Shown here piece by piece: positions 4,024 through 22,139 of a stretch of 50,509 nt of DNA. Numbering within the stretch: the first letter of the stretch is position 1; every line of letters starts with the position of its first letter. The stretch is from an uncultured archaeon. Lineage in GTDB: Archaea; Iainarchaeota; Iainarchaeia; Iainarchaeales; JAAZKV01. The DNA lies in the NCBI GenBank assembly GCA_964461205.1, contig CAYWUL010000003.1:4232-54740 (forward strand), given 5' to 3'. The position numbers were made by a program, and so were the translations under genes. The notes beneath the pieces were generated by a model that was not told the origin of the DNA, ran no database searches, and was given only the letters and a program-made list of their open reading frames with translations.

Positions 4024-5766
4024 CTAATTACTATAATAAGATTTTTTTTGTTTTTGTTCTTTGTCTAATACAGAATCAAATTTGTTTATTCGTGGTCTCT
4101 TTGTTTGAGGATCTCTTCTAACAGTTATTTCTAAATATTCTAATAATTCGTTCATTCCTTTTTCTACTGTAAATGGTCCTGATGCCTCTCCTTTGATTGA
4201 AGGGTCTCCCTTAAAAACCATTAATTTATCACTGACATAATCAACAAAAGTTAAATCGTGGTCAATTATCATTGCTGAACAATCATTTAGCACAATATGG
4301 TTTCTAATAACTTTTCCAATTGCGAGTCGTTGTTCTACGTCTAGATAGGCGGATGGTTCATCTAAAAGATAGATGTCTGCTTTCTTACTCAAACAAAGCG
4401 CGATTGCTACTCTTTGTAGTTCTCCTCCAGAAAGAGTTTTTGCTTTCTTTCCCATTAGGTCTTGTAATTCAAGAGACTTAACAAAGGACTTTTTGAATTC
4501 TTTCAAATGAGTATCGTCAAATAATTCTTCAACTGTTTTGTTTCCATCATAACTAATATATTGTGGCTTGTAAGAAATTTTTGCACTTTGTTCTAGTTCG
4601 CAATTATCTGGTTTGATTTCTTTTGCTAATAATTTCATAAAAGTTGTTTTTCCTATTCCGTTTGGTCCAACAATTCCAACAATCTGGTTTTGTTTTATTT
4701 CATTTTCTTTAACTTTCAATTTAAAAGTGCCAAGTTTTTTTTCTATGTGTGGCCAACTAATTATTGTTTTTCCTTTTGAAGTTTCATTTCTGTTTCCTGA
4801 AAAGAAATCGATTGTGCTTTCTCTAAACCTATAATTTTCTTCTCTTGAATAACCTTCTAAATAATCGTTTATTCCTTCTTTTGTTGTTTTTATTTGCGAA
4901 ACAAAGCCATACACTCTCGGCTTTCCATAAATTAGGTGTATATAGTCACTCAAATAATCTAATAATATTAAATCGTGTTCAACAACCAGTACTGGTTTTG
5001 TTTCAGATATTTTTCTAATAAATTTTGCTACTCTTAGTCTTTCTCGTATATCTAAAAAAGAAGTTGGTTCATCAAAAAAATAAAGGTCTGCTTTTTTTAA
5101 TCCTGTGGCAGCGATAGCAATCTTTTGGAATTCTCCGCCTGACAATTTTGAAATATCTTTATCTAACAAATTTTCCAAGGCTAGTTCGCTTGTAACTTCT
5201 TTTAATCTGTTTTCTTCATCAACTTTTTTTAACAGAGTAACGACTTTTCCTTTTGTATTTAATCCTTCAATATGTTGTGGTTTTACGGCGACTTTGAAAC
5301 CAGAATACAATTGTTTGAAAAATTCTTGTTCTTCTCTTCCTTTATAATATTCCAAGACCCTTTCTTTTTTTCCTTCGTCTTCTCCGAAGTTTTGTATTAT
5401 GTCTCCTGAAAGTATTTTTATGATTGTTGTTTTTCCAATACCATTTCTTCCAACGAGTCCAATGGTTCCTTTTTTTGGTACGGGTAAACCAAATAATCTG
5501 AAGGCATTTTGTCCATATGAATGAACGGGGTCTTTTAAGTCAATTGAAATATTAACAATGCTTATTGCATGAAATGGACATCTGTTTTGACAAATCTCGC
5601 AACCAATGCATAGTTCTTCTGAAATAATCGGTTTTTCGCCTTGTTTATGTGTTATGCATTCTTTTTCGTTTCTATTTACTGGGCACACCTTACTACACAA
5701 GTAATTACCGCATTTTTCAAAATTGCATTTATCGTATTCGATTACTGCTATTCTTTTCTTACTCAT
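4024..5766 (-). CDS. rli: ABCE1/RLI ribosome recycling ATPase
   Basis: N-terminal Fe-S cysteines (CSKVCP, CIGCEICQNRCPF), two Walker A motifs (GRNGIGKT, GPNGIGKT), two LSGGE signatures, C-terminal RPRINK. Start taken at MSKKRIA (5766). Confidence 0.96.
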   Translation of the reverse strand: MSKKRIAVIEYDKCNFEKCGNYLCSKVCPVNRNEKECITHKQGEKPIISEELCIGCEICQNRCPFHAISIVNISIDLKDPVHSYGQNAFRLFGLPVPKKGTIGLVGRNGIGKTTIIKILSGDIIQNFGEDEGKKERVLEYYKGREEQEFFKQLYSGFKVAVKPQHIEGLNTKGKVVTLLKKVDEENRLKEVTSELALENLLDKDISKLSGGEFQKIAIAATGLKKADLYFFDEPTSFLDIRERLRVAKFIRKISETKPVLVVEHDLILLDYLSDYIHLIYGKPRVYGFVSQIKTTKEGINDYLEGYSREENYRFRESTIDFFSGNRNETSKGKTIISWPHIEKKLGTFKLKVKENEIKQNQIVGIVGPNGIGKTTFMKLLAKEIKPDNCELEQSAKISYKPQYISYDGNKTVEELFDDTHLKEFKKSFVKSLELQDLMGKKAKTLSGGELQRVAIALCLSKKADIYLLDEPSAYLDVEQRLAIGKVIRNHIVLNDCSAMIIDHDLTFVDYVSDKLMVFKGDPSIKGEASGPFTVEKGMNELLEYLEITVRRDPQTKRPRINKFDSVLDKEQKQKKSYYSN

Positions 5767-18295: not shown

Positions 18296-18408
18296 TTTAT
18301 CTCGTTGCTCTTTTGCATGGCCAATTCCGTATGGCCGGTCCGGAATACGCTTAATGTGTTACTTTCAGTGACACAACAGAGAATGTTTATCTCGTTGCTC
18401 TTTTGCAT
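18296..18408. repeat. Perfect 23-bp direct repeat (18296-18318 and 18386-18408) flanking element E3
   Basis: TTTATCTCGTTGCTCTTTTGCAT occurs twice. It spans the last codons and stop (CKRATR*) of ORF 18387-18839. Confidence 0.95.
18319..18386 (+). repeat. Structured element copy E3 (68 bp)
   Basis: GGCCA-ATTCCGTA-TGGCC-GGTC-CGGAAT, then GTGTTAC-TTTCA-GTGACAC, ending CAGAGAATGT. Confidence 0.92.
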
Positions 18409-18839
18409 CTTTCTTTTCCACAAATAGAATGAAATTCTGTACAATAAGTATTCCCGTCAACAGTTTTTTTGTATTTACAATTTTCCCAAGTAGCATTTCC
18501 ACAAAAAGTATCATTACTGCCTCTAATAACGTCTGCAATAATATTTCCATGCCGATTATCAATTTTTTGGTTTCCTCGGTGGATAATTGTTTCTTGTCTT
18601 CTTGGTATTTCTTCAACAACCGTTGAGTTTTCTTGTAAAGAATTTGTGGGTTTTTCGATTTGTGTTTCTATCCTTGATTCTTGTTGGTTGGCCCGATCTA
18701 TGGTTTCGCTTGATACTTGGTTTCCTTGAGTAGTATCAATTATTTGTCCTTGAGATCCAGAATTCTTTTTTTCTTCAAGTTTTTGTTGTATAAGTAGGTT
18801 AGTTCTTCTTGTGTCTTCAACAAAACTTTTAAAGGCCAT
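18387..18839 (-). CDS. Hypothetical protein with a polar linker and C-terminal Cys cluster
   Basis: 150-aa ORF with five Cys in the last 45 aa. Confidence 0.7.
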   Translation of the reverse strand: MAFKSFVEDTRRTNLLIQQKLEEKKNSGSQGQIIDTTQGNQVSSETIDRANQQESRIETQIEKPTNSLQENSTVVEEIPRRQETIIHRGNQKIDNRHGNIIADVIRGSNDTFCGNATWENCKYKKTVDGNTYCTEFHSICGKERCKRATR

Positions 18840-18943
18840 AATAGAACAAATTCTAAAAACAAATAAAAAGCTATTGACTAGTGGAAAATCGAATTTAAGT
18901 AATTAGTTTAAGTAATTTTTTGATTATTATTATTATTGTTATT

Positions 18944-19045
18944 ATGAGAACTACTTGCCCAGTTTGTGGAAGTACTAAATACAAGTTGATTCAAAAAGAG
19001 TATAAATGTGCCAAATGTCATTTTGTGAATAAGGTGGTAGGTTGA
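18944..19045 (+). CDS. 33-aa zinc-ribbon microprotein (not in the ORF track)
   Basis: MRTTCPVCGSTKYKLIQKEYKCAKCHFVNKVVG: CPxCG...CxxC. Confidence 0.75.
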   Translation: MRTTCPVCGSTKYKLIQKEYKCAKCHFVNKVVG

Positions 19046-19114: not shown

Positions 19115-19127
19115 AAAAGGTGATGTT

Positions 19128-19150
19128 GTGATTAGTCCAGAACTATGTAT
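19128..19150 (+). pseudogene. Orphan nre 5'-end fragment no. 2
   Basis: AGGTGA RBS, then GTG ATT AGT CCA GAA CTA TGT AT = MISPELC(I). Same peptide as intact nre but with different synonymous codons. Confidence 0.9.
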
Positions 19151-19218
19151 GGCCAATTTCGTATGGCCGGTTCGAAATACGCTTGATGTGCTACTTTCAG
19201 TAGCACTGCAGAGAATGT
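19151..19218 (+). repeat. Structured element copy E5 (68 bp)
   Basis: GGCCA-ATTTCGTA-TGGCC-GGTT-CGAAAT, then GTGCTAC-TTTCA-GTAGCAC, ending CAGAGAATGT. 59/68 identical to E3 by hand alignment. Confidence 0.92.
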
Positions 19219-19231
19219 TTGAGGTAATAGA

Positions 19232-20464
19232 ATGATTTCGCCTGAGTTGTGTATTAAGTGTAAGGGAAAGTTACTTTGTGGTTTAAAAAAATGCCCTATC
19301 TTAGAAAAGAATTTTTCTCAAACAAAAATAGTTTCAAAAATAAAGAACAACGAGTTTTCTGGTGCGACTCCGCCTGGGTTTTTTGTTTCTTGGCAGAATT
19401 ATCCAAAAGTCGCTGTTGCTCCTCTTTCTACCATTCCTGAAGAACTTTCTCCGTTAGCTGATGAACCCGAAAAATGGTATGGTCTTCCTCAAGAACAAAT
19501 AATTTCTTTTAGAGAATCCTTGCTAAGAAGTTACAAAAACATGCCAGTTTCATTAGCAGCAAATCCAAATTATGAGTTAATGGATTTTCAAGAACTAGCA
19601 ATGTCAGAAAAAGTAATGGATGTTGATGTAAAATTAAACAAGGCTCCTTCTGGGCAAACAAAATTTGATTCTTTTTCTGCACCAATGGGACCAAGTGCTG
19701 AACTAAATAAATTATCTTTAACAGAGAATTCTAAGATTCCACAAAAAATTGATTATTATTATTCTGATACAGACGCAAAATCAAATACTGCGTTGATAGA
19801 TTTGTTTGAACACGGTTTTTCAGTTTCAACCCTATCAAAAGTTTTGTCTTCTGGCTCACTTGGTGTAAAAAAGAATAGAAGAATTGTGCCTACAAGATGG
19901 TCAATCGTGGCAGCCCTCGATTCTATCGGAAAAAATTTAATAAATAAAATAAAAGAGTATTCTGTTATTGATTCTATTCAAGTTTTTGAAGATACTTATT
20001 TGGATAATCATTTTATAATAATGCTTTTACCAAAACCATGGTCGTTTGAACAGTTAGAAGTTTGGGTTCCTGGAAGTATTTGGAATATGGAAACCGCTTC
20101 CTCAAAAATAAAGATTTATCACGATCACGAAATGTTTGAAGGGATGAAAGGTTATGCGAATGAAGTTACTGGAGCATACTACGCAGTTCGTCTGCCGATT
20201 GTTGAATATTTAAGAGAAAAGAAAAAACAAGCAATGGTTGTAGTATTCAGAGAAATTGGAGATGGGTACAAGCTTCCGTTGGGTTCGTGGGTTTGTGGTG
20301 AAACGACAAAAGCTGCAATGCAAAAACAACCAAAAATATTTTCAAATGTAGATTTAGCTCTTGAATTTATTGGAAAAAGATTAAAAGTTCCAATCAATAA
20401 ATGGAAGAAAGAAAGTGTTGTCTTGGATTATTATAACAAGCAGAAAACTCTATTCGACTTTTGA
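19232..20464 (+). CDS. nreA: Nre DNA repair protein (DUF650/DUF651) with C-terminal PIP box
   Basis: CIKCKGKLLCGLKKCP, YPKV, RRIVPTRWSI, GAYYAVRL, C-terminal QKTLFDF. Confidence 0.92.
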   Translation: MISPELCIKCKGKLLCGLKKCPILEKNFSQTKIVSKIKNNEFSGATPPGFFVSWQNYPKVAVAPLSTIPEELSPLADEPEKWYGLPQEQIISFRESLLRSYKNMPVSLAANPNYELMDFQELAMSEKVMDVDVKLNKAPSGQTKFDSFSAPMGPSAELNKLSLTENSKIPQKIDYYYSDTDAKSNTALIDLFEHGFSVSTLSKVLSSGSLGVKKNRRIVPTRWSIVAALDSIGKNLINKIKEYSVIDSIQVFEDTYLDNHFIIMLLPKPWSFEQLEVWVPGSIWNMETASSKIKIYHDHEMFEGMKGYANEVTGAYYAVRLPIVEYLREKKKQAMVVVFREIGDGYKLPLGSWVCGETTKAAMQKQPKIFSNVDLALEFIGKRLKVPINKWKKESVVLDYYNKQKTLFDF

Positions 20465-21679
20465 CCAAATTAAACAACAACTCTTTTCTGGGCGTATTTT
20501 CTGTATTTTGCTTTGTGCTTCAAGTTTTGCTAAATGTTCACGTAATGTACTTCCACATATTTGTAATTTATTTCTGAGTTCTAATGAGTTTAGATTTTGA
20601 TTTGACAACAAGTCTAAAATCATTTCTTGTGTAATTCCATACGCACGTCTTTTCCATTTCCGATTTTGCCTTTCTACGATTTCTTTTAACAAGTGTTCTT
20701 TGTGAGCTAGTCCACATGTGGAAAATTTTGTTTCAAGTTTTTTACAATCATTAAGAAATTTTTGAGCATTTTTTAATGAGATTCTTACTCTATACATTTT
20801 TCCAGTCTTTTCTTGTTTTTCACTTATATTGCACGTTGAATATTTGAGTTTGTTTGTAATTTTTCTTATATCTTTTAAAAGATTTTTGTTTCCTGAATAA
20901 ATTTCAATTGTTTCTCCAATGTGTCCTTCATCTACAATGAATGCATTCAGGCCCGCCAGTAAGAAGTCATTTGACATTAATTCGATTTTTCTACTTATTC
21001 GAGATTTGTCCCAATGACAATCGCCTAGTTCTAAATATTCGTCAAGAAATACACTAATCACTTTTGGTATAGCAACCTTGGAATCTTCAGATATTTTAAT
21101 TTTAAAGTTTCCAAAGCAATTTTGTAATTTTTGTGCAAAATTATTTAATCCTTGTTTATTCACTTGACGATAATGTGATTGTTTTCCTTTTCCTCCCAGG
21201 TGGCCATCACCATATAAATGAAATGCGATTGAGACTAATTCAGGAGTTAGATAAATTGGAAAATCTATTTTAACTGGTGTACCACGTCCAGTTGAAGAAC
21301 AATCAACAAGGTTTTTTTCAACTTCTTTTAGTGTTTGTTTATTTTTTGATGATATTTCTATTATTGCCCACAATGGTATTCTTCTTGTTTTTTTACTTGT
21401 TTTTTCAATTCCATAAAACCAGTGTGATAATAAACCAACCCCAACTTTTGGATGAATATTATATTTTGCACGTTTATCATTTAAGTAGTTCGTAGCTTCT
21501 TTCCAAGAATCAAATGAGTCGATAAAGTTTTGAATGAATCTTTTTCGAAAGCGATCTTTAAGCATAATTGTTGTGTTTTTTGAAAAATCAACCAAGTGAA
21601 TTTCTTTGTATTGATTCATATAAGACTCTTTTTTTAGAGACTTATAATCGCTTTGGGAGTACAATGCCGGTGATCTCAT
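20450..21679 (-). CDS. Free-standing LAGLIDADG-type homing endonuclease with C-terminal winged HTH
   Basis: LTPELVSIAFHLYGDG and LAGLNAFIVDEG resemble the two LAGLIDADG helices. C-terminal ILDLL..LNSLEL..LQICGSTLREHLAKLE is HTH-like. No intein Cys...His-Asn ends are visible. Confidence 0.72.
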   Translation of the reverse strand: MRSPALYSQSDYKSLKKESYMNQYKEIHLVDFSKNTTIMLKDRFRKRFIQNFIDSFDSWKEATNYLNDKRAKYNIHPKVGVGLLSHWFYGIEKTSKKTRRIPLWAIIEISSKNKQTLKEVEKNLVDCSSTGRGTPVKIDFPIYLTPELVSIAFHLYGDGHLGGKGKQSHYRQVNKQGLNNFAQKLQNCFGNFKIKISEDSKVAIPKVISVFLDEYLELGDCHWDKSRISRKIELMSNDFLLAGLNAFIVDEGHIGETIEIYSGNKNLLKDIRKITNKLKYSTCNISEKQEKTGKMYRVRISLKNAQKFLNDCKKLETKFSTCGLAHKEHLLKEIVERQNRKWKRRAYGITQEMILDLLSNQNLNSLELRNKLQICGSTLREHLAKLEAQSKIQKIRPEKSCCLIWSKVE

Positions 21680-21807
21680 TTTTGACCACCAACAAAATTT
21701 TCAAGAATCCATAAACTCCTTTCATCCAAGAGTTCAGGACACTCTTTTGATTCTTTTATCACTGAAATAATTTCTTCCTTTTTTGGAAGTTGAATTCCAT
21801 AAACCAT
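21676..21807 (-). CDS. 43-aa ORF translationally coupled to the endonuclease gene (not in the ORF track)
   Basis: GGAGG RBS; MVYGIQLPKKEEIISVIKESKECPELLDERSLWILENFVGGQK; ATGA overlap with 20450-21679. Confidence 0.65.
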   Translation of the reverse strand: MVYGIQLPKKEEIISVIKESKECPELLDERSLWILENFVGGQK

Positions 21808-21965
21808 TATTATCGCCTCCACGAAAAATTTTTTCATGAAAATTCAAAACGACTTTGGAGGCATTGGTTAGTGCAGGTTACATGCCAGACTTATTGATAG
21901 AAATAGGTTTCAAGAAAGATGTTGTTTGGAATGCTTTTGACCGTTTTAATAAACATTGAATTAAA

Positions 21966-22139
21966 ATTAGGGAAAATGTTCGCTTTGCTTTAAAACAAAA
22001 ACCAATGGATTTTTCTTCGATGGATTTAGCTTTAGAATTTTTATCAAAAAAACTAAGGGTTTCTATTGATAAATATAAGAAAAAATCTTCTCTAATAAAA
22101 CATTTCAAAACGCAACATAGATTGAGTGAATGGTTTTGA
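21966..22139 (+). pseudogene. Orphan alternative nre 3' end (57 codons)
   Basis: IRENVRFALKQKPMDFSSMDLALEFLSKKLRVSIDKYKKKSSLIKHFKTQHRLSEWF* aligns without gaps to the Nre C-terminus (21/56 identical by hand) and ends in a PIP-like motif. Confidence 0.88.

Follow-up and report, generated by a model that had tools for sequence, protein, structure and literature searches.

This analysis concerns the 3' end of the DNA-repair gene nre and the nuclease-like gene that converges on it in an uncultured archaeon (GTDB lineage Archaea; Iainarchaeota; Iainarchaeia; Iainarchaeales; JAAZKV01). The window is a stretch of 50,509 nucleotides (nt) covering positions 4,232 to 54,740 of the forward strand of contig CAYWUL010000003.1 (assembly GCA_964461205.1). 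In the window, nre overlaps at its 3' end by 15 base pairs (bp) with a convergent open reading frame (ORF) of 409 amino acids (aa), beyond which lies a second, orphan copy of the Nre C-terminus (Table 1). The first-pass annotation, made from the sequence alone, had described these three elements, and all of them were recovered in place; a 53-aa ORF just upstream of the 409-aa ORF is absent from it. The orphan frame comprises 59 stop-free codons, 57 of them counted from I-R-E-N-V-R. It aligns to positions 55-110 of the 110 in the Pfam family Nre_C with 43.8 bits (cut-off 27) and, apart from nre itself, is the only sequence of the 783-kb genome to match Nre (E 1.3e-7). Downstream lie a HAD hydrolase gene and an RFC small-subunit gene. 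The segment between nre and the orphan lies neither in an intron nor in an intein, as its nuclease ORF is independent and antisense to nre, and since tRNA and Rfam scans of the whole window gave no match, it contains neither a tRNA-type integration site nor a known RNA. Neither an ORF nor homology was detected in the spacer before the orphan, and its promoter role is presumed from position alone. A 22-nt similarity (77 %) between the live nre stop region and positions 21934-21955 was judged likely to be due to chance.

Table 1. Features of the nre locus, with positions counted from the first nucleotide of the window.
Feature	Position	Strand	Basis or remark
nre	19232-20464	+	410 aa; Pfam Nre_N E 1e-89 and Nre_C E 1.9e-31, both full length
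Native 5' part of nre, about residues 1-227	19232..19910	+	Tree of residues 1-235, breakpoint scan
Foreign 3' part of nre acquired by co-conversion, about residues 228-410	19911..20464	+	Breakpoint scan, tree, AU test
Altered version of the presumed homing site, P-L-G-S-W-V-C-G-E-T-T-K	20276..20311	+	Codon alignment
LAGLIDADG homing endonuclease gene, free-standing, double-motif, with C-terminal winged helix, 409 aa	20450..21679	-	Structure model, motifs
Small companion ORF, 53 aa	21676..21837	-	Overlaps nuclease start by 4 nt
Spacer from cassette to orphan; presumed promoter side of small ORF and nuclease	21838..21962	.	Position only
Orphan native Nre C-terminus with PIP-type end Q-H-R-L-S-E-W-F	21963..22139	+	Pfam Nre_C 55-110, E 2.6e-11

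An AlphaFold2 model of the 409-aa protein, based on an alignment of 27 homologues, reached a predicted local distance difference test score (pLDDT) of 91.4 and a predicted template modelling score (pTM) of 0.86. The predicted fold consists of two alpha-beta-beta-alpha-beta-beta-alpha domains packed via two LAGLIDADG helices, and residues 349-407 form a winged helix. The top Foldseek matches in the PDB were PI-TkoII (2cw7, E 2.9e-7), the TliVMA intein endonuclease, PI-PfuI and I-DmoI. The Foldseek probability was 1.00 for I-DmoI, PI-PfuI and PI-TkoII, and the I-DmoI match had a TM score of about 0.6 on the target. The model and this search agree with the first-pass call of a LAGLIDADG protein with a winged helix-turn-helix (HTH). 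The motifs L-T-P-E-L-V-S-I-x-F-H-L-x-G-D-G and F-L-L-A-G-L-x-A-F-I-V-D-E-G stand out in the 27-sequence alignment, where G157-D158-G159 and D250-E251 are invariant (27/27) and acidic residues end both LAGLIDADG helices. Public homologues (n = 30) are unnamed or labelled as ArsR-type regulators or hypothetical proteins. Many homologues begin at the residue aligned to M21, where the true start of the nuclease may lie.

For the comparison of the locus, 40 relatives were used, all of which possess nre; G000 denotes the genome of the window, the other G-numbers denote genomes of relatives, and L-numbers denote loci. In a sliding-window comparison, the Nre of G000 is near that of G004 up to about alignment column 240 and then near those of G002 and G014. 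The tree of residues 1-235 places G000 and G004 as sisters with a support of 94 in the Shimodaira-Hasegawa-like approximate likelihood ratio test (SH-aLRT), and G002 groups with the nuclease-free G006 and G003 (95). The tree of residues 236-352 unites G000, G002 and G014 in a clade (94) that falls outside the remaining 20 members of the family (98). For this part, the approximately unbiased (AU) test rejected the grouping of G000 with G004 (p 6e-6), a group that was chosen after the sliding-window result was known. The maximum chi-square breakpoint lies at residues 224-230, with 0 of 2000 permutations reaching the statistic. To its left, 30 informative sites are like G004 and 12 like G002, and to its right, 11 are like G004 and 55 like G002. 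The neighbouring RFC protein served as a control: within the family, the RFC of the window has its lowest similarity to that of G002 (73 %), yet the Nre of the window is closest to the Nre of G002 (75 %). The conflicting trees and the breakpoint indicate that nre is chimeric and that its last ~185 codons travelled with the nuclease. The gene remains intact, with native sequence up to about residue 227 and foreign sequence over the rest of its length.

Compared with the live tails of nuclease-free relatives, the orphan reaches 60-76 % identity, against 41 % with the live tail of its own locus. In a tree of the tails, four orphans fall among the canonical tails and five variant tails form one clade (SH-aLRT 92), based on 59 columns only. 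The first-pass annotation had proposed a replaced and recoded 3' end that separate phylogenies should reveal, and the trees of body, C-terminal part and tails do disagree as predicted. The replacement stands, but its extent differs, with about 185 codons exchanged and only the last 57 duplicated, and the new end consists of diverged foreign sequence rather than of synonymous recoding. The replaced part includes the PCNA-binding end. NreA is an archaeal PCNA-binding repair factor that depends in Haloferax on its C-terminal PCNA-interacting peptide (PIP) motif, QXXhXXaa, to function (PMC4929162). The end of the orphan, Q-H-R-L-S-E-W-F, fully matches this motif, and the live nre ends with Q-K-T-L-F-D-F, a shortened PIP-like motif with one aromatic residue that is followed by the stop.

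The C-terminal 95 residues were read in 30 nre genes of the family and order. In 25 of these genes, all without a nuclease, the site reads P-L-G-V-W-[QV]-[IV]-R-[EQ]-[NT]-[VIM]-R and the end reads Q-x-R-[LI]-x-[QE]-W-F or similar. A nuclease is present at the remaining loci in four cases, and all four genes are altered precisely at this site. G000 and G002, which adjoin the same nuclease type (type 1, 64 % identity), have W-V-C-G-E-T-T-K, and G004 and G009 have W-L-I-L-E-S-V-[RK]. The sole variant tail among the 26 nuclease-free genes is W-V-C-G-E-T-V-A in G014, and the type-1 profile found no nuclease in the locus or the genome of G014. The first-pass annotation had tied tails of the G-E-T-T-K type to the nuclease, and such tails are indeed rare where no nuclease is present (1/26 in the family and order, 1/28 in a second lineage described below).

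At the DNA level, the codon alignment gives the consensus GGN GTN TGG CAR ATW MGN GAR AAT GTN MGN for nuclease-free nre genes, from which the live allele of the window departs in six of the ten codons. Orphans are also present in G004, G009 and G021, where the orphan-like tail of G021 stands at the extreme contig end. The homology of the window orphan to intact alleles starts with the second base of the CAA codon (position ~21968). The G004 orphan retains TGG CAA ATA AGA, with homology lost just 5' of it, and in the G009 orphan, homology begins at about the AGA codon. The boundaries in G000, G004 and G009 fall within the TGG-CAA-ATT codons. Together with the changes of the live allele at the same codons, they point to a presumed cut and insertion point at W-Q-I, slightly 5' of R-E-N-V-R. 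The first-pass annotation had proposed a target at the R-E-N-V-R codons; boundaries and altered codons centre on W-Q-I-R, just 5' of it. The presumed homing site is altered in the live copy, and in the orphan copy it is separated from its left half.

The nucleases of G004 and G009 are of a second type. Here, an ORF of 462 or 438 aa occupies the same convergent overlapping position at nre. Upstream of this ORF lies a homologue of the small ORF, and beyond that an orphan R-E-N-V-R tail. By BLASTP, types 1 and 2 have no significant match (best E 0.087), and their similarity is limited to the first ~20 residues. A profile-profile comparison aligned 290 columns with a probability of 93.8 % (E 1.7e-7, 17 % identity). 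The type-2 model (pLDDT 89) again led Foldseek to intein and intron LAGLIDADG enzymes, and its invariant acidic residues lie in A-D154-G and F-E250. Two deeply divergent members of one superfamily occupy the same nre site, each with its own variant tail. The type-2 cassettes carry additional cargo between the small ORF and the orphan. In G004 this is an ORF of the 2'-5' RNA ligase superfamily (L033 2729-3298, Pfam E 1.6e-11), and in G009 it is a 156-aa ORF to which no family could be assigned (L034 2769-3239).

The assembly is of the metagenome type and consists of 21 contigs, so that a chimeric contig joining two nre alleles from different strains has to be considered. Six lake-water DNA runs contain the stretch, of which four, possibly from one campaign, were examined. 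Contigs of the four runs do break at the small-ORF repeat, as such an artefact might lead one to expect. Nevertheless, contigs of these runs bridge both the junction of nre with the nuclease and that of small ORF, orphan and HAD gene with zero differences, so the arrangement did not arise from misassembly of this record. Its parts also stand in this order in G002, G004, G009 and at least 11 other loci, which makes a chimeric contig extremely unlikely. Among the public runs matched, no RNA run containing the stretch was found.

Beyond these genomes, a pattern scan with one genome per species yielded 26 public loci with a relative of the nuclease (34-64 % identity). In 24 of the 26, a convergent nre abuts or overlaps the 3' end of the nuclease gene, and the record titles name Woesearchaeota, Nanoarchaeota, Iainarchaeum, Micrarchaeota, Hadarchaeota and Methanosarcinales. 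A hidden Markov model (HMM) of the Nre tail detected orphans in 11 of these 24 loci, always on the nre strand and on the far side of the nuclease, with E-values of 2.5e-10 to 7e-3, four of them weaker than 5e-4. Adjacent gene-end duplications, for which the first-pass annotation had suggested a survey of homologues, are therefore common. Their preservation ranges from nearly whole orphans (L052, L056, L059) down to the last 20 residues. At the site, W-V-C occurs in 16/25 nuclease-adjacent nre genes vs 2/54 nuclease-free genes, and the paired orphans of L052 and L056 have W-V-V.

A second lineage served as a control, with 30 nre loci from relatives of the L052 genome, 12 of them close and 18 distant. 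Nine of the 12 close loci have W-V-V-R-E-S-V and no nuclease. The other three have W-V-C, one with a nuclease and an orphan, one with a 39-aa remnant of the nuclease and one with neither. All 18 distant loci have G-V-G-I and no nuclease. The homing cycle predicts just such a series, in which the nuclease is intact, decays or is lost and the altered allele persists. Alternatively, gene transfer or ordinary homologous recombination could have replaced the 3' part of nre, with the nuclease as a passive passenger or a later arrival. The variant tails of G014 and L091, which lack a nuclease, fit such an exchange, as do the near-canonical sites in 9/25 nuclease-adjacent genes. However, loss of the nuclease is a known phase of the homing cycle, with which the variant tails of G014 and L091 agree. 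The nuclease gene invariably marks the end of the foreign tract, the two stops overlapping, the orphans start at the same codons in independent lineages, and two very divergent nucleases are found at one position. An exchange independent of the nuclease is therefore considered very improbable.

Across the order, near-full-length matches to the type-1 profile (E <= 1e-28) were found in ~17/196 genomes; these may overlap with the 26 loci of the pattern scan and are not independent of them. The four strongest matches abut nre. Twelve weaker ones are paralogues elsewhere (L066-L077), which lie beside gatB (5), just upstream of an Obg/YGR210-like GTPase gene (4), at the gene for the RuBisCO large subunit (1, in a convergent overlap like that at nre), at HMG-CoA synthase/reductase genes (1) and in an unknown context (1). 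No gene-end duplicates were detected beside eleven paralogue loci at tblastn E <= 0.05, the one match being due to a shared TGS domain. The nuclease family is a set of site-specific lineages, and gene-end duplication is so far specific to the nre subfamily.

This distribution also bears on a possible role as a regulator. The protein might be a domesticated DNA-binding partner or regulator of nre similar to WhiA, with the duplicated tail being incidental. WhiA (DUF199) is a bacterial transcription factor that likewise combines a LAGLIDADG scaffold with a C-terminal HTH, and the same domain order, its presence among the structural matches, the labelling of homologues as ArsR-family regulators in public records and the linkage to nre across phyla all favour this idea. 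Yet WhiA is universally conserved in its lineages, whereas the nre-linked nuclease is patchy, missing from 26/30 nre loci and from most of the 196 order genomes. WhiA is also not known to possess the catalytic acidic residues that are invariant in the nuclease family. In addition, orphan tails and chimeric nre genes mark insertion events, and paralogues lie beside unrelated genes (gatB, GTPase, RuBisCO). For these reasons, a domesticated regulator is quite improbable.

The 20.45-21.84 kb segment is very probably a mobile homing-endonuclease cassette, comprising the small ORF and the nuclease gene antisense to nre, that entered nre by intronless homing. This is a gene-end replacement as in the mobile-ORF (mORF) hybrids of fungal mitochondria, here on an archaeal chromosome. 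The first-pass interpretation of a free-standing nuclease cassette that replaced the 3' end of nre is thereby supported and extended. In the proposed mechanism, the nuclease would cut nuclease-free nre alleles at the conserved DNA encoding G-V-W-Q-I-R-E-N. The break would be repaired from a cassette-bearing allele, with the nre body and the orphan tail of the donor as homology arms. Repair would copy in the cassette together with the donor's own diverged 3' part of nre. In the window, the native last 57 codons stand untranslated downstream. Cleavage specificity, the resistance of altered sites and present-day activity are inferred from comparative sequence data.

Several points weigh against this explanation. 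The target of the nuclease and the immunity of altered alleles are likewise putative, as read from the alignments. The Pfam match of the protein to LAGLIDADG_3 (19.0 bits, E 1.7e-3) is under the cut-off of 22.5, and that to HTH_5 (18 bits) is also sub-threshold; the nuclease belongs to a divergent LAGLIDADG family overlooked by Pfam models. Its Foldseek matches include, at lower ranks, the non-catalytic LAGLIDADG-HTH regulator WhiA. The group rejected by the AU test was selected post hoc. No contig skipping the cassette, which would represent the empty site of this strain, was seen in the four runs, and 13 of the 24 loci have no orphan detectable by the Nre-tail HMM. The near-canonical sites (W-V-V, W-Q-I) of nine nuclease-adjacent genes are unexplained by the model; either altered codons are not the sole route to immunity or some of the nucleases are inactive. 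Finally, the compared genomes are kin, and the counts are not independent.

The 53-aa ORF has no Pfam match. Its homologues were found by tblastn upstream of the nucleases in G002, G004 and G009 (45-69 % identity), and an HMM built from two sequences only matches upstream of other members of the nuclease family, including the gatB-linked paralogues. In 4/4 runs, the contig depth of the small-ORF segment (21668-21865) is 13-74x vs ~4-6x in the flanks (5-12x of the flanks), and the segment occurs in many variant contigs with loose ends on both sides. High depth, variant contigs and loose ends indicate that the small-ORF module is multi-copy, with many copies nearly identical, and present in many contexts in the community. 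Within the genome that holds the window, contig C5 also carries a 64-nt piece of this segment at its start, where it leads into a third double-motif LAGLIDADG ORF of ~340 aa (338-342; L119 1-1029) at the contig end. No winged helix was seen in this ORF. Its leader, R-W-F-R-M-K ... A-L-Y-S-Q-x-D-[FY]-K, also precedes the type-1 and type-2 nucleases, and frames of 335-342 aa resembling the third type were matched in G004, G006 and G022. A tentative and rather doubtful possibility is that the small ORF and the first ~20 nuclease codons form a portable leader module that serves several unrelated-looking LAGLIDADG nucleases in small-genome archaea, namely types 1 and 2 at nre and the third type on contig C5. 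If so, nuclease bodies and gene-end cargo would be swapped behind a common expression or mobility module. The result would be a modular platform able to switch its target among nre, gatB, a GTPase gene and RuBisCO, and each invasion of nre would rewrite the PCNA-binding end of a DNA-repair protein.

The first-pass annotation had also regarded nre as re-ended at both termini. The 5' end does look re-ended, as a duplicate of the gene start is present, but by a different element, which is a structured repeat of ~70-75 nt. Its two copies at 18314-18388 and 19146-19220 (regions 18296-18408 and 19125-19252) are 87 % identical and form two hairpins whose pairing is kept by compensatory changes between the copies. 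The repeat has eight matches in the genome, three of them full length. On either side of copy 1 stands a perfect direct repeat of 23 bp, which corresponds to the last six codons and the stop of a 150-aa gene (18387-18839, - strand). Copy 2 lies just upstream of the nre start and is preceded by a duplicate of the first seven nre codons, which has only synonymous differences from the live codons and matches the native start of G004.

Two further observations were made in the surroundings of the locus and in related genomes. A 41-aa zinc-ribbon ORF is located at 18920-19045, between the 150-aa gene and nre, and a similar coding stretch with C-x-x-C ... C-x-x-C lies upstream of nre in G004 and G003. 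In three relatives of the order, RFC small-subunit genes lie in frames of 776-1010 aa in which the RFC match is split in two (G025:C1:89278-90018, G032:C6:47011-49860, G033:C1:15741-18587), which suggests inteins.

The nre cassette would extend the mitochondrial mORF mechanism to archaeal chromosomes, a mechanism in which a selfish nuclease supplies the replacement for the gene end it takes over. The element is widespread in small-genome archaea, where records label its genes as ArsR-type regulators or hypothetical proteins. The comparative data provide a concrete candidate target, the DNA coding for G-V-W-Q-I-R-E-N, and a candidate immunity change in two lineages, which is either a V-to-C codon change or a change of Q-I-R to V-C-G. 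As nre is a mosaic whose 3' 185 codons are off the species tree, phylogenies based on this gene are affected. The same applies to the reading of Nre function, since the PCNA-binding end is the replaced part. Furthermore, two nucleases unrelated by BLASTP that occupy one homing site behind one leader ORF offer a natural system for the study of nuclease turnover. No description of an nre-linked nuclease or of archaeal gene-end replacement was found in the literature covered, which was partial, and this is not proof of absence.

Among known enzymes, the archaeal I-DmoI, I-Tsp061I, PI-PfuI, PI-TkoII and TliVMA endonuclease are the best structural matches of both nuclease types. They too are monomers with two motifs, in which each LAGLIDADG helix ends in an acidic residue. 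In contrast to these intron- or intein-encoded enzymes, the nuclease of the window is free-standing and carries extra N-terminal and winged-helix domains, with an identity of 11-22 %. Free-standing LAGLIDADG genes on an archaeal chromosome are also known from the glycosylation islands of Haloferax, where they were proposed to drive gene conversion (PMC5867893). These belong to pfam03161 and have non-coding flanks, and no gene-end replacement is described for them in the available part of that source.

For intronless homing, the free-standing endonuclease MobE of phage T4 is an established example (PMC2790892). As with the phage enzymes, the nuclease gene at nre stands free beside a conserved gene and probably spreads via break repair with co-conversion of flanking markers. 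The phage enzymes differ in being GIY-YIG or HNH nucleases that are active in co-infection and are located between genes, without gene-end duplication. SegF of T4 is reportedly another free-standing endonuclease that spreads in this way.

The closest parallel is found in fungal mitochondria. In mORF hybrids, the foreign C-terminus arrives together with an endonuclease ORF and the native C-terminus persists downstream, as described for atp6 of Allomyces macrogynus and for atp6, atp9, cox2 and nad3 of Glomus sp. (PMC3630166, which also recounts the Allomyces atp6 case and its biochemistry). C-terminal duplications of cob and atp6 are reported in Endoconidiophora resinifera (PMC6279837). As in these hybrids, the foreign C-terminus of nre is in frame, the native copy downstream is like those of close relatives and the inserted copy is divergent. 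The mORF nucleases are mostly of the LAGLIDADG type, as is that of the nre cassette. Unlike the mORF hybrids, the nre cassette resides on an archaeal chromosome and targets a DNA-repair gene. Its nuclease gene lies on the opposite strand with overlapping stops instead of being fused or co-oriented, and it encodes a winged helix and is accompanied by a small ORF in this lineage. A long replaced tract of ~125 codons upstream of the duplicated part further distinguishes the nre cassette from its mitochondrial counterparts.

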